Shown here piece by piece: positions 2,198 to 63,634 of a stretch of DNA of 64,000 bases. The notes under the pieces are model-generated. The model searched no databases, had not been told where the DNA came from, and saw only the letters and a program-made list of their open reading frames with translations. The stretch's first letter is position 1. Each line of letters opens with the position of its first letter. The stretch lies in the IMG/VR virus record IMGVR_UViG_3300046468_002660. One strand, 5' to 3'. The stretch is from a virus. Both the position numbers and the translations under genes were made by a program.

Positions 2198-3814
2198 ATG
2201 AAAAAAATAACAATACGCACGGGATCTAACCTAAGCCCTATACTTCAGTCAACTGTTAATATTCCGCAAGCTTTTACAGAACTTGTTAAAAATTCGATTC
2301 AAAATTTATCTACAATAGTAAGTATTGAAATCAAAAATGATACCATTTTGATTGCAGACAACGGTATTGGTTTTAATTATTTAAATGACAGTGATGGCAA
2401 GAATGATTTTGATCGTTATTTTGTTTTTGGGAATTCTTATGATGCAACCCGTGGAGAAGGTTTAAGGTTAGGGCATATGGGTTTAGGTGGAAAATTATCT
2501 AACGACAAATTATCTAAAGCAGGTGCGCCAAATTGGTCTTTGTATACAAAAAATAAAACGGGTGAAGCTTTTATTGTAAACTACAATCCACCTAAATCAG
2601 AATTCTTAGATGATTATTCCCCTGAAATTCAACCTGTTAACTCAAAAGACTCGTTGGTAAACACAACCACAGGAACTACAGTTGTCATTAATGATGTTAA
2701 TGATATTTTTCATAATAACAATCGCTTAATCCATGAAATAAAAGAAGAGTTGAGGAATTTCTTCGGGACTTTAGTTACTTCAATCCATCAAGAAGGAAAA
2801 AATCTTGAAGTTATTTTCAATGGTGAATCTTTAAATTTTGATTATCGTTTACCTGGAATATCTTTCGCTCCTTTGGTGAAAAGTTTTAGTTATGACTATT
2901 ATGGTGAAGAAAAAACATCTGAAATAACTTTTAATTTATCTTATGTAAAGACAAGAGAATTTTTAAAAGACCATCCTGTGCAGAATGTTCAAATAGTTTC
3001 TAATGTAAAAATCAGTGACTTGTATTTATCAAACTCAGATCTTTTAGATCTTTTAACAGAAGATGAAGATGAAAAACTTGAAATTATGAATTTGTTTCAT
3101 AATACGATTGGTTATGTAAGTTGTCCAGATATAAGTTCTGTTTTGGATGATTCAGGAATGCCAGCAAAAGATCTCTCACATCATAGTCTACGTTCGGATC
3201 ATCCGATCACAACCGCTTTCTTGGAAAAAACCTACGAAGTTATCATTGATCTACTTAGAGCTTATAAAAAACTTAAACGAGAAAACGAATTCAAACATTT
3301 TAATAATTTTGTAGGTCAAATTACTGATTTCTTAAAGTCAACAAATATGTTAAGTAAAGATATGCTAGTCACAATCCGTAAACCATCAAAAAACCTTAAC
3401 GATGTAGAGCGTTCAGCGTCTTCGGCTATACGCAATGCTAGAGAATTCAATCCAAAAAACAAAACCCAAAAAGATAGATCTAATTGGGAAACAGAAGTAA
3501 AAGCTAGTGAAAATTATTTAAACCAAGAAGTAATTGATTACAATATTATTGATTTTGGTGAAGGTAACGAAGAAGAAATGTCGAAGCATTTGAATGCTAA
3601 TAATTTTCAAATTTTAATTAATTCTACAAATTATAAATATCAAAAAGTAAACAATTCCAAAAACCCTCTTTTTATAATGCTACATCTTTCTGAATGTTTA
3701 ATTTCGGAAATATGTACTTTTCATAACCCAAGCGTTACAAGAAAAGAAATTGAAAAATGTGTCGCTAACTTTTATAAAAATTATTTTGATGAAATGTTAA
3801 CTTTAGTAAAGTAA
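2198..3814 (+). CDS. GHKL (HATPase_c, MORC/MutL-like) ATPase domain protein
   Basis: ELVKNS, DNGIGF, GHMGLGGK and GTTV boxes. Confidence 0.7.
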   Translation: MKKITIRTGSNLSPILQSTVNIPQAFTELVKNSIQNLSTIVSIEIKNDTILIADNGIGFNYLNDSDGKNDFDRYFVFGNSYDATRGEGLRLGHMGLGGKLSNDKLSKAGAPNWSLYTKNKTGEAFIVNYNPPKSEFLDDYSPEIQPVNSKDSLVNTTTGTTVVINDVNDIFHNNNRLIHEIKEELRNFFGTLVTSIHQEGKNLEVIFNGESLNFDYRLPGISFAPLVKSFSYDYYGEEKTSEITFNLSYVKTREFLKDHPVQNVQIVSNVKISDLYLSNSDLLDLLTEDEDEKLEIMNLFHNTIGYVSCPDISSVLDDSGMPAKDLSHHSLRSDHPITTAFLEKTYEVIIDLLRAYKKLKRENEFKHFNNFVGQITDFLKSTNMLSKDMLVTIRKPSKNLNDVERSASSAIRNAREFNPKNKTQKDRSNWETEVKASENYLNQEVIDYNIIDFGEGNEEEMSKHLNANNFQILINSTNYKYQKVNNSKNPLFIMLHLSECLISEICTFHNPSVTRKEIEKCVANFYKNYFDEMLTLVK

Positions 3815-3881: not shown

Positions 3882-5168
3882 ATGGAAGATAAAAATATAG
3901 TTTATGTCGGAATGAGTGCCGATTTAATTCATCCTGGTCATATAAACATACTAGAGTCAGCTTCTAAATATGGTTTAGTAACAGTTGGACTTCTAACAGA
4001 TAAAGCTATTGCAAGTTATAAAAGGCTTCCAGCCTTAACTTACGATCAAAGAAAAAGAGTTATCGAAAATTTCAAATTTGTATCTAATGTTATTCCTCAA
4101 ACAACTTTAGATTATAGTGAAAATCTAAATAAAATTCGACCTAAATATGTTGTTCATGGAGATGATTGGCGAACAGGGATTCAAAAAAGTAGTCGCCAAA
4201 AAGTCATTGATTTATTAGATTCTTGGGGTGGCGAATTAATTGAGCTCGAATATACTCCAGGTATCTCTTCAACTCAATTACATCAAAGCGTTCAAGAGGT
4301 TGGGGTTACCCCACAGATTAGACAAGATAAATTAAAAAGATTATTAAAAGCTAAAGATTATGTTCGAGTTATTGAGTCTCATAATGGACTAAGCGGTTTA
4401 ATAGCTGAAAATGTAAACTTTGAAGGTAAAGAATTTGATGCAATCTGGCTTTCTAGCTTAACAGATTCTACAGTTAGAGGAAAACCTGATATAGAGCTGC
4501 TAGATCGATACGGAACTTTAAATGATATTATTGAGGTAACAACTAAACCCATAATTGTAGATGGAGACACTGGAGGAAAAATAGAGCACTTTTCTTTCAC
4601 TGTTAAAACTTTAGAAAGATTAGGGGTTTCCGCTATAATTATTGAAGACAAAATTGGATTGAAAAAAAACTCCTTGCTTGGAACTGAGGTTAAACAAGAG
4701 CAAGATTCAATAGAAAATTTTTGCAGTAAAATTAAAGCGGGGAAACATTCACAACGCTCAGAAAACTTCATGATTATTGCGAGGGTGGAGAGTTTTATTT
4801 TAGGGAAAACAGTGGAAGATGCAATTGATCGTGCAAAAGCTTATATAGAAGCTGGCGCTGACGGAATTATGATTCATAGCAAAGAGTCCAATGGTGAAGA
4901 AATTATTGATTTCTGTAATGAATACAGCCTCCTGAACCAAAGAGTACCACTTGTTGTTGTGCCATCTTCATACAATCATTTCACAGAACAAGAATTGAAT
5001 GATCTTGGGGCAGATGTTATTATTTACGCAAACCATTTACTAAGAAGCGCTTATCCTAGTATGGTTAAAACAGCAGAATCGATACTTAAACACTCTCGCT
5101 CTCTAGAAGCTTCAAATGAGTGCATGTCTATAAAAAATATTTTAAATTTAATTCCAGGAACGAAATGA
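3882..5168 (+). CDS. pepM: Phosphoenolpyruvate mutase fused to an N-terminal cytidylyltransferase
   Basis: HPGH (HxGH) nucleotidyltransferase motif; PEP-mutase-specific EDKx5NS motif ([10 protein letters not shown]); DGDTGG. Confidence 0.93.
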
Positions 5169-22167: not shown

Positions 22168-22691
22168 AAAAGAGAGTAGATAACGAGAAAGATTATTCAA
22201 AAAAAATTGAGTTAATTAAGCCGCCTTTATTTAATTTTATACGCTCAAAGATTTATAATCATAGTGATGCTGAAGACATCTTGCAAAACACTCTTCTAAT
22301 TTTAGTTGAAAAGCAAAATTCTTATAATTCAAATAAGAGTTTTTATAGCTGGGCTTTTACAATTTGCAAATTTCAAATTAAAAGATATTTAACAATATCT
22401 AAAAGAAATAGAGAGGATAATTGGGAATCTTTCGAATCTGTTCCTATTACTAATACGTCTAGTCCTTTTTGTGATTTAGCTCAAAAAGAATATATAAAAC
22501 AAAAAGATTACGCTATATCACAAATTAAATCTAAGTTCTTGACGCCCAGAGAGTTAGAGTTCTTTTCTTTAATACAAAAAGGTAAAAATAGAGAAGAAAT
22601 AATGAATTCAATGGGCATTAAAATAATTAATTATTATCAATATCGCAATAGAGTTTCAAAAAGATTTGTAGAAAATTACGTAGAAGTTTAA
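22164..22691 (+). CDS. ECF-like RNA polymerase sigma factor
   Basis: Region 2 DAEDILQ...F.SW...I; region 4 LTPRE...HTH. Confidence 0.8.
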   Translation: MKKRVDNEKDYSKKIELIKPPLFNFIRSKIYNHSDAEDILQNTLLILVEKQNSYNSNKSFYSWAFTICKFQIKRYLTISKRNREDNWESFESVPITNTSSPFCDLAQKEYIKQKDYAISQIKSKFLTPRELEFFSLIQKGKNREEIMNSMGIKIINYYQYRNRVSKRFVENYVEV

Positions 22692-24339: not shown

Positions 24340-24415
<76 letters not shown>

Positions 24416-31338: not shown

Positions 31339-31405
31339 ATCATGAATCAAAAAACATAATCTGTCAAGCTTTATTGTTGACAACCTAATTAAATTTATGT
31401 AGTGT
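31339..31405. promoter_or_regulatory. Back-to-back divergent sigma70 promoters at the strand switch
   Basis: TGTCAA (31362-31367) and TTGACA (31377-31382)-17-TAGTGT. Confidence 0.7.
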
Positions 31406-44800: not shown

Positions 44801-47800
44801 AGGATCAAGCTATTGCTTGTCAAGAAGATAAAACCCAACAAAAAAATTTATTCTTTTTAGAGTTCATCAAGCAAAAACTTTTTCAAGAATAGTGTTGACA
44901 TGATTTGATTTTTAGTTTAGTGTTTTATTATGAACAAAGAAATCGTAGTCAAAGAAAAAAAAGCAAAAGGTGTAATGGGTACTCTATGGGTAGTTATATC
45001 AGATCATGCTGAAAACATTAATTTACTAACCCGCAGAAAAAGTCTTGACAGGGTTGATCTTTTATGCTTAACTGATCTTGGTTTTAAAATTAAATACGAA
45101 AAATAATATGACTTATATATGGAATAGAGCAGATCGAGTAGACCCAAAACTCATGCCAAAAGTTATTGAGGATGCTTTTAATAAATGGACTAAAGAACAA
45201 TACAAAAATTTTAAAGAATTAACTGAAGAGCAAAAAAATAAAGTTAATTACAAAGTAGTAGTTCAAATGGGTAAAATGAATTACAATTTAAAACAACTAG
45301 GTTATATAAAATAAGGAGAAAATATTATGGGATTAGATATGTATGCTTACGCTCGTCCACCTCGCAAGAGGAATGGTGACAATGATGTTTCAATCTGCGA
45401 TTGGAGAAAACATAATCGCTTACAAGGTTGGATGGAAGACTTATGGGAAGCTAAGGGCAGACCAAATTGGAAACCATCTGAAGAAGAGAATGGCTTTGGC
45501 GGTGATTTCAATTCTGTTGAATTGCAATTAACTAGAGCAGACCTTTATAATCTTCAAGATGATATTGTAAATCTTAATTTACCCGAAGCAAATGGATTCT
45601 TTTGGGGTAGTGATTCTTATTTTTGGCATAATGAAGATGATAAACCATATCCCGATAACGAATATTATTACAAAGAACAAGATTTAAATTTTGTGGCAGA
45701 AGCACATAAAATGCTTGACAAGGGTTATAGGGTATTTTATAGTTGTTGGTACTGATGAAATATTTAACCTTAACAATTTTATTTTTTGCGGGATGCAATC
45801 ATTCTTCTAACCTTCAACCCGAAGATACTAAAGTTTCTCGTTCAGCAGATATGCAAGAAGAAATAGATTATATATTATCTTTAGATGAAGCATATAAAGC
45901 GGAAGAAAAAATGTATTTAGAAGAAATAAGAAAAGCTCAACTAAATGATGATGAAATCGCATTTCAATTTTTCATTAGAGAATACGCTAAAGTAAAAAGA
46001 CTAGATTTGCCCGAATGGATAAAGAAAGAACCAAATTATGTCAAAGGGGGAGTCAACATCAAATATTAATACAAAACAATTTAATTCGCATGGTAGCCAA
46101 GTGGTAAGGCAGGAGTCTGCAAAACTCCCATTCGTCAGTTCGATTCTGATCCATGCGTCCACTTTATGTAGATGGGTTCACCTCTTTCCCCTGCTTGATC
46201 AACAAAAAAAGACTAGCAAGTAACTCGATTACTGCTATATCGGAGTTAGTCATGGATACTCTCCATGCAAATATTTAAAATAACTTATGAAAATAAAATT
46301 AGGAATACGAGGAAGCACAGATGCAATCAATCATATTATCATTAAATTAGATGATCTTATGCTTGTAACTGCTGATAATTTATTCCTCGCAGGAGATGAA
46401 AGCAGAGGTAAAACAGGAAAAAATTTAGTTGAGTTATTAAATACTTTATCTAAAGATCACGAAATATCTGTTGGTGAAGGTATAGCTAAAGAAATTGAAA
46501 GAGAATTAAATTTAGAAAATCAAGAGTTGCAAAAATTTGTTGTTGACAAATAAATTAAACTGCTTTAGTGTTTGGGCATGAACACATCAGAAGCATTCTT
46601 AGATAGCATCAACCAATCAATCGCTAACGCTGAAAAGATAGCAAACTCGATCCCCAAGAAGGGTCTTAATGTTTATCTCGACAAATCAACTATGGTCATG
46701 CAAACATTCAATGATCCTAATGCATTTGCTCATGCCAAGAAAGTTACTTCAAGAGCAGGTCAATCAAGTTGTCTTCGTAATGTATTGGATGCAGGGGGCA
46801 GATTGCAATAATGCATGATGAAAGATGCAGAATAATAGTTTTCGCACTTAAATACAAACTTTTTATTAAAGAATTATAATTATGCTTGACATATCATGCA
46901 AAATCAACTTGAATAACGACATGGAAAAATTACCAACATACGAAGAGTGGACAAAAGACATGGACTTAGAATCTCAAATAAAATTCTATTATGATGTTGA
47001 CATTGATAATTATTTGGGTGATCCTTGGCAAATAGTAGCAGAGATTGCAGAGGAATGTCCTAATTGGTTAGTAGAGTTTAAAGCTAATTTTAAAGAATAT
47101 TTACAAGAGAGAGAATACATACAATGAAAGAAACAAGAGATCATTTTACAGAAAAAAATCTTCATGTTCAAATGAAGTGGAATGTTGAGCCACAAAAAAT
47201 GCTAGATTATATTATTGAAGCAGATAAATCAAATGGAAGAGATTCAGACGAATATTCTCCTTCGTTTTATGTAGGTAAATCTCTCAAATATATTCGTGAA
47301 GTCTATGAAGACTATAATGGTCTTGAATCTTTAACTGATACTGAATTAATCGAGAATGGTTATTATAGATTGGAGATCGCATGAAAGAATTAAAAGAAAA
47401 ATTAAATAAAGTTATTTCTAAACAAGTTGAGATGGTAAATAAGTATGGGTCAAATACTCTCTCTACTTGTGATCATTATAATTGGGATAAAGATATTTGG
47501 AATTATAGACATTCTATTGTTGACAAGCTAATTGATCTAGGTTTTAATGTCGATACTCAAATGAATTGGGGGGTATTAGATATAACAATCACAAAGGAAT
47601 TAGAATTATGAAAGTAACAAGTGTTAGATATTTTGAAACAAATAAAGGGGTTGGTTATCAATGCAAAACTAATATCAAAGATATTCAAATATGCAATGAT
47701 GGCACAGGGGGAGCAACTTATGTAGATGGAGATTTAAAAAAATTAATTAAAGAATATACAGAATGGGATTTAGAAGATTTAATTGATCAATACGAAAATA

Positions 47801-48822: not shown

Positions 48823-51129
48823 ATGATAATCACACAAAACAAATCAAAAGAGGTAATCAGTTCTCACGACTTTGAACAAGTCAATTGCACGATTGATGCT
48901 GAAGATATGCGTTATGTCGCATCCCTTCTTCGCAACAATTATTCAAACACAAGACTTGCAGTAGTACGCGAAATTAGTGCAAATGCACTAGATGCAAATG
49001 CTGAAGCAGGTGTTAATCGTCCTATTGAAATTAAGTTGCCAACTTCAATGAATCCAACATTTGCAGTTCGTGATTTCGGGGGTGGACTTAGCCAAGAAGA
49101 TGTTTTCGGTCTTTACTCTAAGTATGGTAAATCAACCAAGCGTACATCCAACAATTATATTGGTGCTTTCGGTATCGGTAAATTTGCTCCACTTTCTTAT
49201 GGTGACAACTTCACTTGTGTTTCTTTTCACAATGGGCTAAAAACTTCTTACAATGTATTTGTCGATGAGAATGACGATACCAAAATCACAAAGTTGTTTG
49301 AAGAACCAAGTAATGAACCAACAGGGTTATCTATTGAAGTTGCAGTTTCGGAAGATGATCGTAACGAATTTAGAGAAGTTGTACAAAAATTCTTTCGTTT
49401 CTTTTCTGATTCTGATATGCCAAAATTTCTTGGAGTCGAAGAAGGTTTTATACAAACTCCTAAAAAAGTTTTATCAAGTAAAACTGATGAATGGTTCTTT
49501 GCGGAAGACGAGAGTCGTGGATATGGTTATAATTATTACTCTCATGTTCTTATGGGTAGAGTTGCTTACCCTATTGATCCAAATGCAATAAATGTAGAAA
49601 ATTTTGTATCCAATGAAAGTTCTCGCAGAATAGTTCAACAACTTTTACAACAAAGTAATTTCTACTTTCGTGTTCCTCTTGGTTCAGTAAGATTGCATCA
49701 TAGTCGTGAGTCGCTAGAATACAACAAAGCAACTCAAAAAGAAATTTGTGCGATTCTTTACAAAGTTAGTCAAGATATTCAAACTATTGCAAAAGAAAAA
49801 CTTGCCGATAGTGAAGATTTGTGGGATGCAAAGAGAAATTACGCTCAAGTTATTAATGCTTTACCTTATCAAGTAAGAGGAGTATTTGAGAATAGTTTTG
49901 AGTGGAATAGTATCAAAATTACAGATTCTACATTTCAAAGAGATTATCAATTACAAGACGATCTAATTATTACTGATTACGAAAAAATTGAAGATAAAGA
50001 TTCTCGCAATGGTTTCAAGGTAAAAGCCACTAAAACAAATCGCATTTATTGTCAAGACAATTATCTTGTGATGATTCAAGATATTGATTCTTCTCATGGC
50101 AACAATCTAAGAGTTCGCACATTGATGAATGATTTACCCGACCTCAAAGGTGTTTATGTTGTTCATGCAACATCCGAATGTGGTAAATCAGAAGTTTATG
50201 ATAATTGGCAATTTGATCTTGTTGACGCAAAACATAAGAGATATTCTTCACAAGTAGATAAAGAAAAAATTGTTCGCAATAAAGTTTCGGGTACAAGTCG
50301 TGCTTCTATTCCATTGTTCAAAATGAGAATGGATAAATCTTCTTATGCTTATCGTAATGCAGATTATTGGCAAAATGTCAACGAACCAATCAATTCACTT
50401 GAGCTAGATGAAGTCGAAGGTTCTGTCAATAATAAAATCATTTATGTTCCAATCAAAAACTATAAGGTTGATAGTGAATCTTATGATCTTGACAGAGTTT
50501 ACAAAATATGCAGAGGTATCCGCAAAAGTGCTGAAGATAATTCAGAAGAAAAAAATCTTCAATTATTCGGTGTTCGTGCAGGTGATGTTAAAAAGTTAGA
50601 TAAAAGCACATGGGTATCATTCTTTGACTTTTATCTTGACTATTGCAAAAACATCATTCGTGACAATAAGAAAGAATGTCAATCAGCATACAAAACAATT
50701 CAATTCAAAAAATCTGTTAATAATGAATTCGCAGAATATCGTTGGAATTATGGTCAATTATTCACTAATAATACGCTTGACATTTCTAGTCTCGGTGATG
50801 ATCACTTGTTAGTTCGTTGTGCAGAGAATTGGAATCTTCTCATGCAAGAAAGTACAGATGATCGTAGATTTAGTGTGGCAATCAATGTAGTTTCATTAGG
50901 AGATCAAAAATGGTTAGATGATGTATTAGATACAAAAGTAAATGCCGAATCTATCATGCAAGAATTTAAATCATTGAAAGAAAAATATCCTTTACTTAAA
51001 ATAATCTCGCATAGTGTTAATCAATGGATCAACTTAAAACACAATAAAGATTATGACAATCGTAATACCAATGAAGATATTACCGAATATATTTCCTTGT
51101 GTGATCAAAAAGAGAGGGGGGAGAAGTGA
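48823..51129 (+). CDS. rIIA: RIIA-like protein (N-terminal GHKL domain)
   Basis: YS...AVVREI..NALDA, RDFG.GLS, STK..SN..IG.FGIG; precedes rIIB. Confidence 0.85.
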   Translation: MIITQNKSKEVISSHDFEQVNCTIDAEDMRYVASLLRNNYSNTRLAVVREISANALDANAEAGVNRPIEIKLPTSMNPTFAVRDFGGGLSQEDVFGLYSKYGKSTKRTSNNYIGAFGIGKFAPLSYGDNFTCVSFHNGLKTSYNVFVDENDDTKITKLFEEPSNEPTGLSIEVAVSEDDRNEFREVVQKFFRFFSDSDMPKFLGVEEGFIQTPKKVLSSKTDEWFFAEDESRGYGYNYYSHVLMGRVAYPIDPNAINVENFVSNESSRRIVQQLLQQSNFYFRVPLGSVRLHHSRESLEYNKATQKEICAILYKVSQDIQTIAKEKLADSEDLWDAKRNYAQVINALPYQVRGVFENSFEWNSIKITDSTFQRDYQLQDDLIITDYEKIEDKDSRNGFKVKATKTNRIYCQDNYLVMIQDIDSSHGNNLRVRTLMNDLPDLKGVYVVHATSECGKSEVYDNWQFDLVDAKHKRYSSQVDKEKIVRNKVSGTSRASIPLFKMRMDKSSYAYRNADYWQNVNEPINSLELDEVEGSVNNKIIYVPIKNYKVDSESYDLDRVYKICRGIRKSAEDNSEEKNLQLFGVRAGDVKKLDKSTWVSFFDFYLDYCKNIIRDNKKECQSAYKTIQFKKSVNNEFAEYRWNYGQLFTNNTLDISSLGDDHLLVRCAENWNLLMQESTDDRRFSVAINVVSLGDQKWLDDVLDTKVNAESIMQEFKSLKEKYPLLKIISHSVNQWINLKHNKDYDNRNTNEDITEYISLCDQKERGEK

Positions 51130-51227: not shown

Positions 51228-52388
51228 ATGAATCAAGTACCATATCAACTCACAGAAAATTCACTCACAATCTTTTGGGATGGCAAGCCTTATACATTGC
51301 GTAAGGATCATGCCAACTTTCAACTTGCTAAGAAAGCTATTCTTGATGCTAGGTATGATGATCTCGGTGATCTTATTGACATTTCCAAGGCGGTAGAAAA
51401 CTTTGTCGAAGGTGATATTGAAGTAAAAGATGAAGTTGTTTATTACAAAGGTCATCGTTTGCATGGTGTTGTTGTGGATAAATTGCTTGAAATGCTTCGT
51501 GCAGGAATGAAAGATTCTGCTCCACTCACTAACTTTATTTCTCGCTTGCAAGCTAATCCAAGTGCAAATTCAGTAAATGAACTTTATTCTTTTATGAGTT
51601 ATAAGTCTCTTGCGAATACTTCCGAAGGTAAGGTTTTAGGTTACAAAGGTGTACAATCCGATTATTGGAGTACAACAGGTAATGCTGATACAATTGTATT
51701 ACAAGGCGAAACTAATGATCGTCACCAAATTCTCAATGAGGTTGGTGCAACAATTGAAGTCGCTCGCAGATGCGTAGATGACAATAAGGATAATCATTGC
51801 TCTTTCGGTCTTCATGTTGGTTCATTTGATTATGCCGATAGTTGGGCAGGAGAAGGTGGAAGATTACTTCTAGTCGAATTTGATCCTGCTGATGCAGTAT
51901 CTGTACCAACTGATTGCGATTTTCAAAAACTTAGGGTTTCTAAGTACAAGGTGATCTCTGATATTAGTGATACAAGAAAAGAGCTTAATAAACCTGTCTA
52001 CGAGGCTAATAAGCCTATTTATGGATCAGATGATGATGAGGATTTCGGGGGTCACAATGAAGATGATTCAGATTATGTAGATATGGAATCTAATATTGAT
52101 GATGGTTCGGGCATTGAATATGATGATGATAATTGGGAACAATTGGGCGAAGAAGTATTAGAAGAAGATATGGATCAAACAGAAAAAGATATAAGTGAAT
52201 ATATAGAAACTTATATAAATAATAAACACGATAATTCTGTCAATCCAACTCTTAAAAACATTGCTGATCTTAGAGCTTGTAAGAATGAGAGATTAACTTG
52301 TAAAGAAATTTATAAAATTGTTGATGATCTTAATTTCGTTGTTGAAGAAGATGATAACAAACCTTTAAATCAATTACGAGTACTTTAA
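51228..52388 (+). CDS. rIIB: RIIB-like protein with acidic C-terminal extension
   Basis: NPS.....LY.F, GYK.V, CS.GLHVG...YA, P.D.VSVP.D....KLRV..Y.V. Confidence 0.85.
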   Translation: MNQVPYQLTENSLTIFWDGKPYTLRKDHANFQLAKKAILDARYDDLGDLIDISKAVENFVEGDIEVKDEVVYYKGHRLHGVVVDKLLEMLRAGMKDSAPLTNFISRLQANPSANSVNELYSFMSYKSLANTSEGKVLGYKGVQSDYWSTTGNADTIVLQGETNDRHQILNEVGATIEVARRCVDDNKDNHCSFGLHVGSFDYADSWAGEGGRLLLVEFDPADAVSVPTDCDFQKLRVSKYKVISDISDTRKELNKPVYEANKPIYGSDDDEDFGGHNEDDSDYVDMESNIDDGSGIEYDDDNWEQLGEEVLEEDMDQTEKDISEYIETYINNKHDNSVNPTLKNIADLRACKNERLTCKEIYKIVDDLNFVVEEDDNKPLNQLRVL

Positions 52389-54786: not shown

Positions 54787-55060
54787 TGAGCATAGATCTC
54801 GCAAGCATTAAGTTGCTAAAAGCCAATTCTTGTAAGTCTCAATTCACTTTGGAAGGGCTTATAATCCTTCCTGTGGGTGACCGAATGAGCCTGTCGTGAG
54901 CGGGCTAAGGTATGCAGATCCCTGTGGTGGGGTTGGTAGAGTCCAATCGGATGAGCCAAATGACAACACCAAGTCTAGTCTGTAGTTGGAAGTAGGTACA
55001 CCATGAACTGATGTTCACGCCGAAAACTTGAGGGTATACAGTAGCCCCTCCCCACACAAT
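54787..55060 (+). ncRNA. Candidate structured non-coding RNA
   Basis: GC-rich ORF-free island with its own promoter (TTGACA 54680, TAATAT 54703), multiple stems and a downstream terminator. Confidence 0.65.
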
Positions 55061-55418: not shown

Positions 55419-55651
55419 CAAACATTATTAACCAAAAAACATATGGAACCATTGCTAATATTAACATTGGCGATTACACTAGGAATAAAATTATTAGTAG
55501 AGGAAGTAATATAATAATATACAGTATAATATATAACAAATAATAAAAATAAAAATTTAATCAAAATGGACTAGTATAAATAATAAATAATCAAAATAAA
55601 TAATAAAAAAATTTTAAATAAATAAATAATTTGATTATGATTACCTCCTTG

Positions 55652-55680
55652 GCCCCCACCGTAATTGGTGGGGGTTTTTT
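55652..55680 (+). terminator. Rho-independent terminator
   Basis: GCCCCCACC-GTAATT-GGTGGGGGT plus T-tract. Confidence 0.85.
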
Positions 55681-55702: not shown

Positions 55703-55774
55703 TAAGTCTTTGTTTATCAAGCACTTCTGAGATCGGCTGCCGCGCTAGCTAAGTCTTTGATATTCAATGAATTA
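55703..55774. repeat. Double-palindrome element copy 1
   Basis: 25-bp box, 22-bp spacer with GGCTGCCGCG, 25-bp box. Confidence 0.85.
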
Positions 55775-55836
55775 AAAAACTCAAATTAATTCACTTTTTT
55801 CTTGTGTTAAATTGTTTTTTATGCGATACTATGTAT

Positions 55837-55953
55837 ATGAAAGCGAGAGACATAAAGATCAGAAAACCAATTGTCTTCACTAAGTCAAGACCTCACAAGG
55901 TCAAGATTAAAACAATCCACAGAAAACTAAAACACAAGGAATTATTAGCATGA
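55837..55953 (+). CDS. 38-aa basic peptide (not in ORF track)
   Basis: MKARDIKIRKPIVFTKSRPHKVKIKTIHRKLKHKELLA; leaderless after TTGTGT-17-GATACT. Confidence 0.6.
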   Translation: MKARDIKIRKPIVFTKSRPHKVKIKTIHRKLKHKELLA

Positions 55954-56177
55954 ATATTAACGAAGATTATTTAAGTTCAGATTGCCCAAACGCAGATGAA
56001 GTAATGACTCAAGGCATGGGTTGGATTTGGAAACATTTCATTGAACCTAACGCAGATCAAATTACAGAAGAACAAGCAGAAATGCTTACAATGATTGGGA
56101 TCAGTTTTAAAATGGTCGCAGAACAAGCAGATGCTTACGATCAAACTTTTGAAGAAAGCCCATATTTAAACAATTAA
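55950..56177 (+). CDS. Hypothetical protein
   Basis: ATGA overlap with the preceding peptide. Confidence 0.55.
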   Translation: MNINEDYLSSDCPNADEVMTQGMGWIWKHFIEPNADQITEEQAEMLTMIGISFKMVAEQADAYDQTFEESPYLNN

Positions 56178-56215
56178 CTCTTGACAAAAAACATTATAAC
56201 TATTATATTACTATC

Positions 56216-57088
56216 ATGAATACAGAAGAAAACACCAATATCGCTCCTCGCAAATCCGTTAACTTGCACATTTGCGGAGGTAATCGTACAATCGTAGACT
56301 TTGACGAAGTTCAAGCTGTACCAACTCCAATGCCTACAATGCGTACAAAACCAAACAAAAGAACAGGGGAATTTGCCATTTCTCACCAACCAATTGCTCA
56401 TGAAGCTCTTGTAGTTCGCACTAAAGATTCTCTCACTAGCAGAGGTTTCACCATTCAAGATGAGCTACACTCTCTCGCTAGGGACAACCAACATTACTTT
56501 GGATTGTTCTCTGTAGATCATCCTGATCGTGATCCATCAGATCGTGGGTGCGTTGTAGGGGTTCGTAATTCTCACGACAAAACTTTTCCTGCGGGACTTT
56601 GTGCAGGTGATGCACCATTTGTTTGCGATAATTTAATTTTTACAAACACCATAAAACTTGCTCGCAGACATACTCGCAACATTATGAACGATCTCGATTT
56701 TATGATCAATCGTGCTTTGGGTAAATTGTTTGGCTTTTGGCATGGGCAAGATGAGAGAGTAAAGGCTTATCAAGATCGCTCTGTTGGCAATGTTCTAGCT
56801 CACGATCTTATCATAAAAGCAGTTCGTGCAGGTGCTTTACCAAAATCAAAAATTCTTGATGTTGCAGATCAATGGGAATCAAGCGATCATGTTGAATTCA
56901 AAGATCGCAATATAAATTCTCTCTACAACGCTTTCACAGAGATTTACAAAGGTAACTTGGTTGCCTTGCCAAATCGTTCAGACGCTCTTCATTCTGTTCT
57001 TGATAGTTATGTTGACTTCAATATTGATAACCATGTTGAAAATACTATTGACATGGAAGTCGTAGAGGGCGAATTGGTAGAAGTTTAA
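56216..57088 (+). CDS. DUF932/DUF945-like protein
   Basis: RNSHD, FVC.N, RHT, LYNA.TE. Confidence 0.7.
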   Translation: MNTEENTNIAPRKSVNLHICGGNRTIVDFDEVQAVPTPMPTMRTKPNKRTGEFAISHQPIAHEALVVRTKDSLTSRGFTIQDELHSLARDNQHYFGLFSVDHPDRDPSDRGCVVGVRNSHDKTFPAGLCAGDAPFVCDNLIFTNTIKLARRHTRNIMNDLDFMINRALGKLFGFWHGQDERVKAYQDRSVGNVLAHDLIIKAVRAGALPKSKILDVADQWESSDHVEFKDRNINSLYNAFTEIYKGNLVALPNRSDALHSVLDSYVDFNIDNHVENTIDMEVVEGELVEV

Positions 57089-57109
57089 ATATTGGTTTGT
57101 CGTTTCGTT

Positions 57110-57138
57110 GACTCCCCCCAAATGGGGGGAGTTTTTTT
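57110..57138 (+). terminator. Rho-independent terminator
   Basis: GACTCCCCCCA-AA-TGGGGGGAGTT plus T-tract. Confidence 0.85.
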
Positions 57139-57159
57139 ATGCCCAAAATTACTAAAGCG

Positions 57160-57231
57160 CAAGTCCTTGTTTATCAAGCACTTATGAGCGCGGCAGCCGA
57201 ATGATATAAGTATTTGATTGACAAGCGTTTA
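57160..57231. repeat. Double-palindrome element copy 2 (spacer core inverted)
   Basis: Spacer carries CGCGGCAGCCG. Confidence 0.85.
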
Positions 57232-57293
57232 AAAATTTAAAATTATTTAACTTTTTTCTTGCAGTAATTATAAAAATGGCTTAGTATGTTTAC

Positions 57294-57707
57294 ATGATAC
57301 TGAGAAACCAACAAGACCCACGATATAGAATCAAAAAGAATCGTCCCGTATATGTTTACAAGAATCTTCATAAAGATTGTTGGAGCATCAAGCAACATGG
57401 TTTAGTTAAAGCTCACATCCCAAAGGATCATGCTATTGGATTATGGGATTGCTATTTTCATGTCGATGCCAAAGGCAGAGAAAAAGTTCTTCGTGAGAAG
57501 CGTAAGAATGTTCATGCTTTTGTTAAGGGTTATCTTCAGGATGCAGAAAATGTATCTTGCAATCCCCAAGTTATCAGCAGGGAAGTCGAGGTAACATATA
57601 ACCCCTACAAGTATGAGACTTTTGTAGAGAAGGAAACCGAAAAGTTTGCATACTATGCAGACGAAGTATTATTAACACACAACAAAGTAACCGCTTATAT
57701 ATCATGA
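57294..57707 (+). CDS. Conserved phage hypothetical protein
   Basis: VY.NLHK..WS, G..V.REKRKNVHAFV.G, YNPY motifs. Confidence 0.65.
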   Translation: MILRNQQDPRYRIKKNRPVYVYKNLHKDCWSIKQHGLVKAHIPKDHAIGLWDCYFHVDAKGREKVLREKRKNVHAFVKGYLQDAENVSCNPQVISREVEVTYNPYKYETFVEKETEKFAYYADEVLLTHNKVTAYIS

Positions 57708-58092
57708 ATTACACAGACGAAAATATTACGGAAGTAGCACAAAAAATTGTAGAAGATATGGATCTTGATGATCTTATAAGTTATGTCTATGATGACCTTG
57801 TAGCTCTTTTTGAAAAAGATGAAGAATTGTTTAATGCCAATTGGGATTGTTTGGATATGGACACATACCTTGAAAAGGAAAAGTAAAATGAAAGAAGAAT
57901 TATACTCAATTAAAACCGCCATTGACGGACTTAGCGATGAGATACTAGAACATCGCAGACACGCAAACATGGAGGATCTCGTCAAGGTAATGAAGAACAT
58001 TAACGATAACCTTGTTGCAATTAGTTTTGACTTAAAAGATTTAGTTGAAGCAAAAAAATTCGAAAACGAGTTGAAAACTGCACTCAGATAGG

Positions 58093-58164
58093 TAAATCCT
58101 TTATAGTCAATCACTTAGGTGGCTGGCTGCCGCGCTAGCTAAGTGCTTAACATTCAACGATTTA
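58093..58164. repeat. Double-palindrome element copy 3
   Basis: Same 25-22-25 architecture. Confidence 0.85.
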
Positions 58165-58225
58165 CAAAAGCATTTTTATTTAGTTTTTATTTGACAGAAA
58201 CTAAAAATTGCCTTAGTTTTATGTT

Positions 58226-58402
58226 ATGCAAGAAACAATAGATATGACACCAAAATGGACAGCAGTCGTTAGAATATTAACTGAAGTGCTTATGAGCCCA
58301 AAAGCAGGACACGCGGATAAATGCAATGCTGTAACTGAATTACTAAACCTCGCAAAGATTGTAGACGATCAAAACGAAAGGATAAAAAATGACACAAAGT
58401 GA
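58226..58402 (+). CDS. 58-aa hypothetical protein (not in ORF track)
   Basis: MQETIDMTPKW...; leaderless after TTGACA-17-TAGTTT. Confidence 0.55.
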   Translation: MQETIDMTPKWTAVVRILTEVLMSPKAGHADKCNAVTELLNLAKIVDDQNERIKNDTK

Positions 58403-58635
58403 AATTAGAATAATGATATTAAACATCGTTAACGGAAACATTCGCTATGCGAATCCCGCAGATCCAATGAATGTCAAGAAAGCTGAAGACTTGGGTATTG
58501 ATTACTTCACTACTCAATCAGCGGAAGAAGTCTTAGATGATATCATTACAGACTTGACAAGCTTGCAAGATGAGCTTAGGATAGAATCATCTTTTCAATC
58601 AGCACAACTATAACACACAGGACACAAGGAGAAAA

Positions 58636-59628
58636 ATGACAACTATAGCACAATTACAAACCAAAAAAAGAAAAAGCAAGAAAACTACTTCTTTGCAAGT
58701 TAACCAAAGCAAAGTTACCGCAGAAAAACAATTCAACAAAATTTTTAAACAAAAAGAGTTTAAGCATTTTATCTACGATTTTGGTGTCAAAGATTTACCT
58801 TTGCTCGATCATATGCTATCCGATCAAGTAAACAATCCCTCAAGAAATCGTGGCAAAGCAGATGACAACATCAAGAGATTATTTCGTTGTCTTCAAGCGG
58901 GTCAATGGTTTTTCGAGTCAATCGACATTCTCATCAATGAAAGAGGCGAGCTTCTTAATGGTCAACATACATTGGAGGCTATTAACCAACACCTTCTTGA
59001 CGCAAAAACACCAAGAGATGCTGTAGTGAAAGTTGGCTTCAAGTTAGGAGTTGATTCAAGAGCAATGCCTTATCTCGACACTCAAAAGAAAAGAAGTCCA
59101 CATCAAAATCTTAGAATTAAACAAGGTGGTGTGGATATTAAACTTAATCGAGCACAAGAGTATATTGTATTAACTGAAGGTAAAAATTTAGTACATGGTT
59201 CTCCTTTCGCTAAAGGTAAGATCGTAAACTTTTTTGAATACGATAGCGTTATTAAAAAGCATTCTAGTATGTTAAACAGAGTGTTTGGTAATCGAGTATT
59301 CTGCTCAGACTTTCCTCATATTGGCATCAGTTACCCTTTGTTCTGTGTTGCCAAAGAAGATGAAGAGCTTGCAAACACTATTCTTGATGAGATTTGCGAC
59401 ATTCATAACGAAAGCAATCGAGGAGTCTCAAAATGGTATCCTTATGAGAAACAAATTCCTGTAGAGCACGAATTGATAGAAAAGTTTAGACAAGAAAAAC
59501 ATCTCAAAATGTCAGGAATGACAAGCAAGACGGGCAGAGATTGTTATCGTGCCGAAGAGTTTTATCCATTAGCAGTTAATTGGTTAGTTGAGAAGTGCGA
59601 TCTTGATCGCAACATTTTTCCAAAATGA
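58636..59628 (+). CDS. ParB/Srx-like N-terminal domain protein
   Basis: NR.....M/L..GQW, G.LLNGQH.L.AI, D..K.RS; SD AAGGAG. Confidence 0.55.
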   Translation: MTTIAQLQTKKRKSKKTTSLQVNQSKVTAEKQFNKIFKQKEFKHFIYDFGVKDLPLLDHMLSDQVNNPSRNRGKADDNIKRLFRCLQAGQWFFESIDILINERGELLNGQHTLEAINQHLLDAKTPRDAVVKVGFKLGVDSRAMPYLDTQKKRSPHQNLRIKQGGVDIKLNRAQEYIVLTEGKNLVHGSPFAKGKIVNFFEYDSVIKKHSSMLNRVFGNRVFCSDFPHIGISYPLFCVAKEDEELANTILDEICDIHNESNRGVSKWYPYEKQIPVEHELIEKFRQEKHLKMSGMTSKTGRDCYRAEEFYPLAVNWLVEKCDLDRNIFPK

Positions 59629-59954
59629 ATTATTACATAAAACAAGCAAACTCACTCGAAATGGCTTTTTACATTGGTAAAACCAGGAAAAACCCCTTCA
59701 CCCAAAGGGGTAATCCTACCAACAAGACAATCTGTCAATGGATCAAAGATTATGGTGAAATTGCATGGACAACACTTATGGTTATACCCGAATACGCATT
59801 GCACAATGAATACGGAGAAACTTATCTCATAAATTGTTTCAAAGAAAAATTTAGCAATTTAAAATTATTGAATGTAGCCACGCCACATTCGGGAGCAATT
59901 AATTACGATAAAAAATCTGAGTTAATTATTGACAAACTCAAGAAAATGCTTTAG
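59625..59954 (+). CDS. GIY-YIG-like small protein
   Basis: Y....FYIG.T....R, E..LI, LLN. Confidence 0.45.
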   Translation: MNYYIKQANSLEMAFYIGKTRKNPFTQRGNPTNKTICQWIKDYGEIAWTTLMVIPEYALHNEYGETYLINCFKEKFSNLKLLNVATPHSGAINYDKKSELIIDKLKKML

Positions 59955-59985
59955 TGTTTAACTAAATCACAACGAAAGGAAAATC

Positions 59986-61017
59986 ATGACAACAGTATTA
60001 GACAAACCCGAACAAATCGAAATGTTTCGCTACAAAACTCTTCTTAGAGGCTTAAAACTTGAGACGCTAGGAATGCAAATGAGTAGAGGCAGATCTTGCT
60101 ACTCTATCGTCAAACAAGAGTTTGGACTTAAAGGTAGCAAACAAAAAGTTTTCGATCAATTTAAACTTATGTTAGAACAAGTAGACGAAAGGGCACTATA
60201 ATGACAGCATCACAAGTAGAAGCGAGAGTAGAGAGTTGGAATTGGAACATGAATGTCTTTGAGATATATGACGAACTCAGAGACGGGCACACAGCGAAAC
60301 AACAAGAGGATTTACTTTCTTTTGCCTATCGTTACTTTAACAAAGATAAAATGATTTTAGAGCTTGCCAATCACTTTGGAATCTATAACATAGAGGATAA
60401 TGAAAATGAATAATTACATTGAAGCAACCTGCATCGGTAGTCCACTAGGTTTACCTGAGTACAACGAAGAAACTGAACAATACGAAGTTTTCTTCGAAGA
60501 AAATTACGACGAGTTTAACCCGTACTTTGAGAGAGATATTATTTCTTATAGTTGCGAAGACGCTGAGGAAGCGACTGAGATCTACAACTATTACAACCAA
60601 AATCCCGTACAAGAAGAACATGAAGAAATTGTTTCTTAAAATACTCCGTTGGTTTACTCCGATATATCAAATAGTATATCACACCAAAGACGGCAGAACA
60701 GAAATGTACACAATCACCCCGCCAAAACATGAAAATGAATTTGGCAACAAGCAAGAAGGCAAGTCAGTCGTTGGCTTCAGGTCCTTCTGCCTAAATCGTG
60801 GTGGTATTCGTTCATTTCGCTACAATCAAATAATCTCATTAAACAAAATTTAATCATGAAGAAAAAAGTTAAAAATAAAGATTCACTACAAGATAGCTTA
60901 AGAAGATTCGGGCACATGCTCGCAATACGAGAGCGACGCGGGGACACATCCGAAGAGTACAAACAAAAACAAGCTCTTCACGAATCGATGTTAAGAAAGC
61001 TTTATAATCGAGCGTAA
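59986..61017 (+). CDS. Five small hypothetical proteins (59986-60201, 60201-60413, ~60400-60639, 60620-60853, 60856-61017)
   Basis: Coupled ORFs; the last stop codon is the first TAA of repeat copy 4. Confidence 0.55.
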
Positions 61018-61086
61018 GTCCTTTATATTCAGTCACTTAGGTGGCTGGCTGCCGCGCGGCATAAGTGCTTGATATTCAATGAGTTA
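61015..61086. repeat. Double-palindrome element copy 4
   Basis: Same architecture. Confidence 0.85.
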
Positions 61087-61148
61087 AAAATGTTATTTTA
61101 ATTCACTTTTTTCTTGCGTCTGGTAGTCTTTTTTGCGATAGTGTAACC

Positions 61149-61355
61149 ATGCAAAGAATAGTAAAAATCCTAATGGAGCGTGACGGACTTTCCCTCGAAG
61201 ACGCTACTCACCAAACCGCAACTTTTTTTAGAGAAATGTCTGAAGACATCGCAATGGGTGGTGACCCTTTCGAGTGGGAGCATTCGTTCACTAGCGAGTT
61301 TTCTCTAGAGCCAGATTTTTTTGAAGATCTTATTTTTTCGCTTGCAATTGCATAA
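61149..61355 (+). CDS. Hypothetical protein
   Basis: ILM.RDG.S..DA motif; leaderless. Confidence 0.6.
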   Translation: MQRIVKILMERDGLSLEDATHQTATFFREMSEDIAMGGDPFEWEHSFTSEFSLEPDFFEDLIFSLAIA

Positions 61356-61376
61356 AAATTTGTTTAGTTTTATATC

Positions 61377-62102
61377 ATGAATCTATTATCAAATCCTTCT
61401 AAAATGCCTTGTTTAGGCTTTAACATTCCCGCTTTCAAGTATTGCCCCGCAGCTCAACTTATGGCAAAAGTCAAAGACAAAGCAAAAAAGTTTATTTGTG
61501 ATGCTTGTTATGCTTGCAAAGGTTTTTATATGTTTGCCAATGTCAAACAAAGCTTGCAAGACAAAGCAAATTTTGTTACCAAGTCTTTACATCAAGACAA
61601 TGGGCAATCTTTTGTAAATGAGATGTCAAAGCAAATTACTAAAAAGTATTTTGACAAGCAAGGCAACAAAAAAGTTTTAAAGAATGTCAACACAGATCTT
61701 TTTCGCGTTCATGATTCAGGAGATCTTTTTTCCCCAAAGTATATCGAGGCATGGATTAAGATTTGCGAAAATTTTCCTTCAATTCGCTTTTGGTTTCCAA
61801 CTCGTGAGTGGGCAAGAGATAGTCAATTGCCTTCACTTCGCAAGCTTGCAAGTTTAAAGAATGTTTGTTTAAAACCAAGTGCTTTATATGTAGACGAACC
61901 CGCTCCACAAATCGATGGTCTAGATGCGGGAACTTCCGTCTATAGCTCAAAAGAGAAAGCCGAGCAAGATGGTCATTTTGTTTGCCCCGCAACTTATGTT
62001 AAGGGCGAAGACGGCAAGATTTTAGCAACTTGTAACGCTCATAATTGCAACTTATGCTTTATCAAGGGATGCAAAAAAGGTATTGCATATTTAGCTCATT
62101 AA
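61377..62102 (+). CDS. GP88-like Cys-rich protein
   Basis: SKMP, CP, C..CYA.KG, FR.HDSGD, W.PTRE, CPA...C...C..C. Confidence 0.75.
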   Translation: MNLLSNPSKMPCLGFNIPAFKYCPAAQLMAKVKDKAKKFICDACYACKGFYMFANVKQSLQDKANFVTKSLHQDNGQSFVNEMSKQITKKYFDKQGNKKVLKNVNTDLFRVHDSGDLFSPKYIEAWIKICENFPSIRFWFPTREWARDSQLPSLRKLASLKNVCLKPSALYVDEPAPQIDGLDAGTSVYSSKEKAEQDGHFVCPATYVKGEDGKILATCNAHNCNLCFIKGCKKGIAYLAH

Positions 62103-62117
62103 CCTATAATTAAAGCC

Positions 62118-62297
62118 ATGAATGAAGAAACTTATTTTGACTCAGCCCAAGGAATTGACATTTCACAAGATCGTGCTTTGCAAGAATTAGCAAGGCACGA
62201 CATTACTTCAAGTGAAGAAATTATTGAATTCTTTGAAGACATGGGTGACAAGGAAGGATACTCAGCCCAAAAAGTTCTTGAGTGGTTAGGCTACTAA
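62118..62297 (+). CDS. 59-aa hypothetical protein (not in ORF track)
   Basis: MNEETYFDSA...VLEWLGY; stop is the first TAA of repeat copy 5. Confidence 0.6.
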   Translation: MNEETYFDSAQGIDISQDRALQELARHDITSSEEIIEFFEDMGDKEGYSAQKVLEWLGY

Positions 62298-62366
62298 AGC
62301 CTTGACCATCAAGCACTTAGGGGCGCGGCAGCCGCCCAAGCTAACTGCCTGTTAGTCAACGACTTG
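62295..62366. repeat. Double-palindrome element copy 5 (spacer core inverted)
   Basis: Spacer carries CGCGGCAGCCG. Confidence 0.85.
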
Positions 62367-62428
62367 CGCAAGCATTTTTATTTAACTTTTTTCTTGCGTT
62401 AATTGTAAAAAGAGTTTAATGTGTTTAT

Positions 62429-63112
62429 ATGATTAACTACGACATACCAGACTCAATCTCACAATTCAACCCACAACCTTCTATGCTAGATTTTGACGAT
62501 TTAGATTTTCAACCACATCGTGGTGCTGATGATGCAGTCCAAGCAAGACTTGACTTTGGCAACGGGCTAGAAATTTCTGTTGTTGCAGGTAATGACGATA
62601 GAAGAGGATTATATGGTAGTGTGAAAGAAGATTTATACGAAGTTGCAATCTTTGATAAAAACGGCATGATTCCACTTTCTCCTTCTGACGATGTTGTCGG
62701 ATGGCAATCTCCCGCCCAAGTATCTATCTTAATGGCAAAAGCTCAAGTCGAAGGAAGTGTTTGGGTTGACGAGCTAATCGAAGACAAAGCAGAATTTAGA
62801 AGAGATTTAGGACTTGACGACTAAACCAAATTAAACTATATTATTACTATGACAGAAGAACAAAGAATATCAATTATCCGACACGCTCACCAAAATTCTC
62901 AAAAGATTTGTCCTCCAAAATCTATTCAAGAGTTTATTGGTGATATTTTAGTCGAACAATTAGTAACCGAGCATGGTTTGCTTGATACTCAAAAAGAAGA
63001 TCTAGCAGACGAGTCTCAATTTCTCTTCACTGATTCAGCAGAAAACATTGATGAGGAAGACGAACAATTCGGAATATCCGATGAAATGAAAGGAATATAT
63101 CATGATAGTTGA
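62429..63112 (+). CDS. Two hypothetical proteins (62429-62824, 62849-63112)
   Basis: Each leaderless with its own promoter; first has F.NG..ISV..YG..YEVA..DV.GW. Confidence 0.6.
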
Positions 63113-63294
63113 ATTATTATTTTTCACTCCTTGGCTTTTTGTTTTCTACTTAATGTGGCAAGATTTAAAAGAGGAATGATGCCATTAATAATAATTATGG
63201 CAATTTTATTATTTTTTTATATATCAGATTAAATAGGGCAAATATCAAATAAACTTTTAGTAGTAGTTAGGTTGTCTGGATTAGTCCCCCGCTC

Positions 63295-63366
63295 TAAGTT
63301 GCTGATTATCAAGCACTTAGGGTGGGCGGCTGCCGCGATCATAAGTGCTTAACATTCAACGACTTA
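63295..63366. repeat. Double-palindrome element copy 6
   Basis: Same architecture. Confidence 0.85.
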
Positions 63367-63427
63367 CGAAAGCATTTTTATTCATTTTTTTCTTGTGTAT
63401 TTTTATTTTTTCGCTTAGTCTGTATGT

Positions 63428-63634
63428 ATGAAACATTCAGAGAGCGGAACCAAAAAGATATTAAAGCAGTTACGGAAATGTCCCGATATTAAAGACATCC
63501 GTGCCACGGCAAAAGGTCACATGATCCTTGCTCAAAATGGGGAGCAATTACTTGTGCATTTTAGTGCCAAAGCTTTTCATCCATTGCGTAGGTGGTTAAA
63601 AAGAAACACTTCGCTAAAAGCGTTAAAATTTTAG
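63428..63634 (+). CDS. Small basic protein, possibly HicA-like
   Basis: helix-KGH-strands-H-helix pattern. Confidence 0.4.
   Translation: MKHSESGTKKILKQLRKCPDIKDIRATAKGHMILAQNGEQLLVHFSAKAFHPLRRWLKRNTSLKALKF

Follow-up and report, generated by a model that had tools for sequence, protein, structure and literature searches.

Six direct repeats of about 137 nt were found in a 64,000-nt stretch of viral DNA (IMG/VR record IMGVR_UViG_3300046468_002660; this whole stretch is called the window here), which comes from a large uncultured phage with a GC content of about 32%. The repeats, termed elements, start at 55703, 57160, 58093, 61015, 62295 and 63295, and the gene groups that they head were named cassettes A to F in that order. 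Our preferred reading, to which we give a probability of about 0.6, is that the elements are composite boundary and promoter modules that head small early-gene cassettes and act as points of genetic exchange. All six elements share one architecture, the elements of related phages are confined to a single array per genome, the cassettes are permuted among relatives with the breaks lying at elements, and a hybrid element was recovered from a metagenome contig.

Each element consists, in order, of box L (25 bp), a 22-bp spacer, box R (25 bp), an A/T-rich tract of about 27 nt whose end reads ACTTTTTTC, a -35 hexamer, 17 nt, a -10 hexamer, 6 nt and an ATG. The consensus of box L was TAAGTCnTTGA-nnn-TCAAGCACTTA and that of box R was TAAGTGCTTGA-nnn-TCAAnGACTTA, while the spacer core was CGGCWGCCG, itself palindromic and lengthened to GCGCGGCWGCCGCGC in some relatives. 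On the plus strand, box L and box R occupy 55703-55727 and 55750-55774 in copy 1 (spacer core CGGCTGCCG), 57160-57184 and 57207-57231 in copy 2, 58093-58117 and 58140-58164 in copy 3, 61015-61039 and 61062-61086 in copy 4, 62295-62319 and 62342-62366 in copy 5, and 63295-63319 and 63342-63366 in copy 6. In the last of these, box L is clamped by the flanks CCCCGCTC and GGGTGGG, which covary in orthologous copies. The copies were 61-79% alike, with unbroken identity of 8-25 nt. An earlier description made from the letters alone (the sequence-only reading) had given the same six positions and a 22-bp gap, and both were found exactly in 6 of 6 copies.

The box pattern occurred 12 times in the 64 kb against 0.21 expected; 11 of these matches lay within elements and one, at 22532, was a chance match, and solitary boxes outside the elements were absent across the 64 kb. 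For the core 8-mer GGCTGCCG, 0.14 occurrences were expected and 6 were observed. The two boxes matched each other in their outer arms and also in their inner arms; therefore, the whole 72 bp (or 71-73 bp) form one dyad with four half-sites.

The left edges of the elements were flush with the preceding unit, as the sequence-only reading had also claimed. The TAA that opens box L is the stop codon of the open reading frame (ORF) at 60856-61017 in copy 4 and of the ORF at 62118-62297 in copy 5, and in copy 3 the stop codon precedes the box by 1 nt. Canonical intrinsic terminators on the plus strand stand just 5' of copy 1 (55651-55676, annotated to 55686) and just 5' of copy 2 (57110-57133, annotated to 57140), the latter closing cassette A. 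Copies 2 and 5 had further been described as carrying an inverted core, and this did not hold up: only the centre base (A in place of T) and the flank that keeps CGC differ. The core register (10 nt to the left of W and 11 nt to the right) is equal in copies 2 and 5 and in copies 1, 3 and 4, so that no physical inversion of a segment is needed; inversion of the whole element in copies 2 and 5 was ruled out on the same ground. The orientation flip that had been brought forward in favour of recombination sites thus comes down to the centre base of a palindrome.

A predicted sigma-70-like promoter (TTGnnn, 17 nt, -10) lies 3' of the dyad in 6/6 copies, with the ATG 6 nt past the -10 hexamer and without a Shine-Dalgarno site in every case. 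Promoter 1 (55802-55839, like all six on the plus strand) has a -35 of TTGTGT (55802-55807), a -10 of GATACT (55825-55830) and an ATG at 55837 that opens a 38-amino acid gene ending at 55953. In promoter 2 (57259-57296) the hexamers are TTGCAG and TAGTAT and the ATG at 57294 belongs to an L5 gp82-like gene; in promoter 3 (58191-58228) they are TTGACA and TAGTTT, with the ATG at 58226; and in promoter 4 (61114-61151) they are TTGCGT (61114-61119) and GATAGT (61137-61142), with the ATG at 61149. Promoter 5 (62394-62431) combines TTGCGT with TAATGT and an ATG at 62429, and promoter 6 (63393-63430) combines TTGTGT with TAGTCT and an ATG at 63428. Box R and the -35 hexamer were separated by 27 nt in copy 1, where the distance was counted, and apparently by the same distance, within 1 nt, in the other five copies. 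A sigma-70-type promoter of this kind, with its T-rich tract, would start transcription at the A of the ATG and would leave the first gene of the cassette leaderless.

When the geometry TTG-N20-TAnnnT-N6-ATG was counted in the window, 16 matches were observed against 1.7 expected, all of them on the plus strand; this count leaves out copies 1 and 4, whose -10 hexamers are GATACT and GATAGT. Leaderless promoter-gene units are therefore habitual in this phage, and the dyad was present at just 6 of the at least 18 leaderless promoters of the window. Further units with the exact geometry were located on the plus strand at 31377, 35352, 41716, 42198, 44895, 46543, 47805, 55129, 56181, 61342, 62814 and 63642, and most of them had a consensus TTGACA at -35 and no dyad.

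Relatives were gathered by scanning IMG/VR with a pattern and then searching with a profile, and metagenome contigs were scanned as well. The element was found in about a dozen related IMG/VR contigs and in 67 further metagenome stretches, many of them multi-copy and several labelled marine. The pooled loci comprised 353 sites, with 139 distinct full-length copies. Five relatives were searched whole, and each had 9-11 copies in one stretch of about 10 kb; in the relative of 205,857 bp that is rated complete, the copies were confined to 25.2-34.3 kb. The element described by the sequence-only reading is thus shared by relatives and restricted to one array per genome. These arrays consist of small genes, most of which had no family match. 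When 185,579 genomes of bacteria and archaea were scanned twice, no arrays were revealed, one of the scans giving 7 scattered single matches, about the number due to chance, and on this result an origin of the element in host genomes was rejected.

Beyond the point that corresponds to the end of the window, minus-strand cassettes of the relatives converge on the plus-strand ones. In the plus-strand cassettes, the dyad and the promoter form a fixed 137-nt unit. In the minus-strand cassettes, a similar leaderless promoter follows the dyad in the direction of transcription at a distance of about 100-190 nt, and one dyad, placed right where the two sets of cassettes converge, lacks a promoter. Minor departures from symmetry within the dyad tended to track the direction of transcription; the centre base was T on the sense strand in 26/34 plus-strand copies and in 8/15 minus-strand copies. 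In the closest relative (L039), three copies of AAGTTGCMCWAT spaced by 27 nt were noted at 1694-1759 on the minus strand, between a dyad and the next promoter of the minus-strand cassettes; with 4 matches against 0.4 expected, this sequence may be another binding site.

Most of the -35 hexamers that follow the dyads differ from that of most other leaderless promoters. As the sequence-only reading had reported, they were non-consensus in 5/6 copies (TTGTGT, TTGCAG or TTGCGT, with one TTGACA), compared with TTGACA in 7/10 promoters without an element. This difference could be explained if the boxes were tandem operators for a dimeric or dimer-of-dimers regulator, of phage or host, turning a subset of the early promoters with a weak -35 on or off, in which case the shuffling would be a by-product of the repeats. 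The conserved half-sites are indeed dyad-symmetric without covariation, their invariant AA, T, A and TT being symmetric, and the distance of about 27 nt from box R to the -35 hexamer is constant in the plus-strand subtype. This fixed distance had been offered earlier as an argument for operators. It stood for the plus-strand subtype and failed for the minus-strand cassettes and for the promoterless copy at the convergence point, and a constant spacing may simply reflect the common descent of the 137-nt unit. Furthermore, no regulator gene was found in the family searches of the cassette genes, and the concentration of breakpoints in the elements is left unexplained by regulation alone. We consider an operator array on these grounds unlikely.

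Comparison with the relatives revealed that the cassettes had moved as units. The closest relative (83-92% identity) had the order C'-B-A-D-E-F, a second lineage, represented by three independent assemblies, had C'-A-D-B-E-F, and a third lineage began with B-C'-A. Clustering of the arrays by ORF family reproduced the reordering seen by nucleotide comparison and identified one cassette that was inverted between two relatives. Over all genome pairs, adjacencies that crossed an element were broken in 107/127 cases (84%), compared with 121/375 (32%) for those without an element; in the closest pair, the figures were 4/5 and 1/12. Within cassette C, a two-gene insert (58636-59954, plus strand; 330 and 109 amino acids) was absent from three relatives, and in another relative, G004, it formed a free-standing cassette between two elements. 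Variation of gene content and order between copies, which the sequence-only reading had suggested as a check, was observed: cassettes were permuted, gained, lost and, in one instance, inverted, and the breaks lay at elements. Misassembly at the repeats was considered as the source of the differing orders and judged unlikely, because the copies share no more than 25 nt of exact identity and because the orders recurred in independent assemblies.

The positions of the crossovers were examined with identity profiles of element pairs that had just one flanking cassette in common, either the upstream or the downstream one. Box L, together with the left spacer, was linked to the upstream cassette, the AT tract and the promoter were linked to the downstream gene, and box R was linked to neither neighbour. 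From these linkages, the crossovers fall in two places, close to the core and at box R's right edge. A hybrid element was observed in a metagenome contig (94% identity) in which one cassette was absent, and its switch lay between the core and box L's inner arm.

This arrangement resembles the PeSL (promoter-early stem-loop) cassettes of T4-type phages, in which a terminator stem-loop, an AT tract and a sigma-70-like early promoter are clustered among genes of unknown function (PMC2839356, PMC4122927). Crossovers in PeSL elements were located in the loop or in the interval separating the stem-loop from the AT tract (PMC2839356, PMC4122927). A further feature of PeSL cassettes is the formation of mini-circles by exchange between neighbouring motifs. 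Like PeSL cassettes, the present elements combine a dyad, an A/T tract and a sigma-70-like promoter with a 17-nt spacer, they are clustered, in many copies, in a hyperplastic region whose small genes have no known function, and it is at the motifs that relatives diverge, the crossovers lying either mid-dyad or where the dyad gives way to the AT tract. They differ in that the short G(n)-loop-C(n) hairpin of PeSL is replaced by a double palindrome of 72 bp that is conserved in sequence, has a GC core and shows no pairing covariation, and in that the first gene is leaderless, where PeSL has a Shine-Dalgarno site. In addition, the cassettes contain 1-9 genes and are permuted, not merely inserted or deleted, the dyad is also found apart from a promoter, and the carrier has no T4-type capsid or portal gene. 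Neither the T4-type capsid protein (Gp23) nor the T4 portal was matched in two relatives rated complete, in searches whose controls were weak, and the carrier phage is apparently not T4-like.

No tyrosine recombinase (PF00589) was matched in five relatives, including the complete 206-kb genome, with 14/14 controls positive, and neither a serine recombinase (PF00239) nor a Y1 (HUH) transposase (PF01797) was matched in the same five. These results bear on the possibility that the elements are dedicated sites of the integron or lox kind, at which an unrecognised phage recombinase would bind the boxes, exchange strands in the GC core, excise circles and reinsert or invert them. Two inverted protein-type sites round a central core would suit such an enzyme, as would the several crossovers in the core or left spacer and the moves that mostly kept orientation, with one inversion; the short uninterrupted identity also argues for help from a protein. 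However, box R was linked to neither neighbour, so that the crossovers were not at one point, the cassettes have promoters of their own, and the centre base, which would set the polarity of a site, varies without matching inversions. Together with the missing recombinase families, this makes dedicated sites very unlikely in our view.

An integron-like appearance is given by the cassette array bounded by imperfect composite inverted repeats with nested arms, as in attC sites, by reordering that keeps orientation and by the existence of single-gene cassettes. Unlike integrons, in which promoterless cassettes depend on a common promoter, the present arrays have a promoter for every cassette, and no IntI-type integrase (PF00589) was found in the five relatives. 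Unlike attC, the 139 copies had no conserved GTTRRRY 7-mer, and the linkage decayed at two places, with dispersed crossovers. The proposal of the sequence-only reading that the elements shuffle self-contained expression cassettes, comparable to PeSL modules or integron cassettes, was thus borne out in the PeSL sense, with permuted cassettes and breakpoints in the elements, and was not upheld in the integron sense, since no integrase, resolvase or Y1 transposase was found, the cassettes have their own promoters and the crossovers are spread.

In the boundary and exchange module that we favour, the left half would be the 71-73-bp dyad, with its two 25-bp palindromic boxes round a GC palindrome, set flush against the end of the upstream cassette, and the right half would be the promoter of the next one. 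Recombination between two copies would delete, insert or move a whole cassette together with its own promoter. A cassette could also be inverted in this way, as the reverse complement of the dyad is almost identical to the dyad. Crossovers scattered as these are point to general or short-homology recombination, the route proposed for PeSL cassettes, and with identical stretches so short a protein may assist. Exchange would accordingly be general or short-homology recombination, possibly protein-aided, and probably not the work of a classical site-specific recombinase.

Whether the dyad acts as DNA or as RNA was approached through its folding and its variation. Most copies could be folded into a long imperfect hairpin (mean z -3.0), and this foldability is due to the symmetry of the consensus. 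Pairing in the hairpin was 65-80% Watson-Crick, and on the sense strand G-U was not in excess of A-C. Neither the long hairpin nor the two local 11-3-11 hairpins covaried more than shuffles did, real spacers were no better in self-complementarity than chimeras, and a mutual-information scan of 89 non-redundant copies gave no complementary pair. A hairpin of the boxes, in RNA or DNA, was rejected on these results, and a known RNA family was likewise set aside, as no Rfam match to the elements was obtained. Among the 139 copies, the invariant bases were symmetric: AA (box positions 2-3), T (9), A (17) and TT (23-24), together with GGC/GCC in the core. Because pairing covariation was lacking and many symmetric bases were invariant, we favour a protein-bound site in double-stranded DNA over an RNA hairpin. 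With its four half-sites of TAAGTnnTTGA and its GC core, the dyad would then serve as a boundary or operator between transcription units.

Several findings weigh against the boundary and exchange reading. The inner-arm and spacer hairpins displayed weak covariation, in 19% of copies the flanks lengthened the stem of box L, where the changes among orthologues were compensatory, and the copies at the convergent junctions of relatives formed GC-clamped hairpins followed by UUUU and were embedded in canonical terminators. Family and structure searches of the cassette proteins identified no DNA-binding protein for the dyad. RecA/UvsX (PF00154) and endonuclease VII (PF02945) were not found in two relatives, and the unbroken identity between copies is short for efficient homologous recombination. 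Finally, as the genome comparisons behind the counts of broken adjacencies are non-independent, the odds ratio of 11 is descriptive only.

Part of this evidence would be accounted for by an element that works at the RNA level at the 3' end of a cassette, as a terminator or attenuator, an RNase III-type site or a stabiliser of the 3' end, comparable to the PeSL stem-loop or the intergenic RNase III sites of T7. Besides the junction copies within canonical terminators and the flank-extended box L, such a role would agree with the position of the dyad flush with the upstream stop codon, the long imperfect hairpin of most copies, the bias of the centre base towards T on the sense strand, and the lack of another terminator in cassettes B, C and D. 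However, cassette A has a separate canonical terminator right before the dyad, which argues against termination as the sole role of the dyad. The GC stem and U tract that are the hallmark of an intrinsic terminator were absent from the window elements and present only in the convergent-junction copies of relatives; no U tract followed any of the six window copies, and the terminator scan flagged only 55651 and 57110, both outside the elements. Long, local and spacer hairpins were all without covariation in tests on 60 and on 89-139 copies, and the incomplete Watson-Crick pairing, the lack of a G-U excess and the lack of an Rfam match add to this. An RNA-level element is in our estimate distinctly improbable.

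Two further families of repeated sites were considered beside the boundary and exchange modules. The stoperators of L5-type mycobacteriophages are 13-bp asymmetric repressor sites that are intergenic, oriented with transcription and spread over the whole genomes of temperate phages. The present elements are like them as repeated specific sites in short gaps whose polarity tends to follow transcription, and some cassette genes belong to the L5 gp82 and GP88 families. Unlike stoperators, they are 72-bp dyads confined to one 10-kb array, and no repressor or integrase was found. The paired imperfect palindromes with a linker, placed between genes right after stop codons, also recall the repetitive extragenic palindromes and bacterial interspersed mosaic elements (REP/BIME) of bacteria, which occur in many chromosomal copies together with RAYT transposases. 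They differ from these in being phage-borne and linked to promoters, in having no arrays in the 185,579 genomes scanned and in the absence of a Y1 transposase (PF01797).

The variable early genes of phages represent the fastest turnover of host-takeover and anti-defence functions. To our knowledge, the PeSL cassettes of T4-type coliphages and vibriophages are the only ones for which the exchange of early genes is known in detail. The elements described here are a clear second case, in a large, uncultured and apparently non-T4-like group of marine phages, with a boundary element far more specific than that of PeSL and with predicted leaderless expression, and with cassettes whose permutation, gain, loss and inversion can be seen directly among natural relatives. 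The element is also of practical use as a marker, since a 72-bp profile locates the variable early region of phage contigs from metagenomes. Binding of the dyad by a protein, should it occur, would link transcriptional insulation to cassette exchange. It is a long shot that a single unrecognised protein of phage or host binds the dyad, insulates the leaderless units and pairs the elements for strand exchange near the GC core; if so, this would be a phage-borne, integron-like exchange of cassettes without a known recombinase family, and it would drive the turnover of early genes, probably for host takeover or anti-defence, across a widespread group of marine phages.

Among the cassette genes, weak similarity to DUF932 was detected at 56216-57088, a match to the L5 gp82 family at 57294-57707 (E = 3e-31) and a match to the GP88 family at 61377-62102 (E = 2.5e-24), all on the plus strand. 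The best cultured-phage match of the GP88-like gene was in Pelagibacter phage HTVC033P (29%). Genes related to DUF932, L5 gp82 and GP88 are families known from actinophage early regions and mobile elements. Three conserved cassette proteins were strongly acidic, namely those encoded on the plus strand at 61149-61355 (68 amino acids, 15 D/E vs 4 K/R), 62429-62824 (131 amino acids, 27 vs 10) and 62849-63112 (87 amino acids, 21 vs 6), and none of the three had a family match. A strongly acidic composition is common in DNA-mimic anti-restriction proteins.

Cassette F begins with a very basic protein of 68 amino acids (63428-63634, plus strand; 16 K/R vs 4 D/E), which was kept in 7/7 arrays compared and was the first gene of its cassette in most. 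A structure model of this protein was alpha-beta3-alpha (predicted local distance difference test score, pLDDT, 78.7), and four of the five models were poor. Sequence searches of Pfam and PDB gave no match for it, a fold search gave none at E <= 0.001, and there was no Atlas lead. A likeness to HicA and a role as the dyad binder were both set aside, as no fold or family match supported them. The 109-amino acid protein of the insert in cassette C contains YYIK...FYIGKT, which by eye resembles a GIY-YIG motif, and it had no Pfam match. In the corresponding free-standing cassette of relative G004, a mini-ORF of 5 codons occupies the leaderless start position (L086 ~6600). In L039, a Kyanoviridae Gp96-like gene (3032-3328, minus strand) lies in the last minus-strand cassette and a PhoH-like gene (3996-4724, plus strand) follows the array.

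In the window, the array is preceded by rIIA (48823-51129) and rIIB (51228-52388); 3' of rIIB, an AT-rich stretch that holds a manA RNA is followed by the six repeats. Cultured phages gave no DNA match to the array region or to a single repeat unit, and protein matches were distant only. The manA RNA (54851-55060, plus strand) matched Rfam RF01745 over its full length with 82.6 bits, the sole Rfam match noted; promoter-like sites lie upstream of it, and the strong terminator that begins at 55651 lies about 600 nt downstream. Two tRNA genes were also located on the plus strand, for tRNA-Thr (TGT) at 24340-24415 and for tRNA-Cys (GCA) at 46087-46161.

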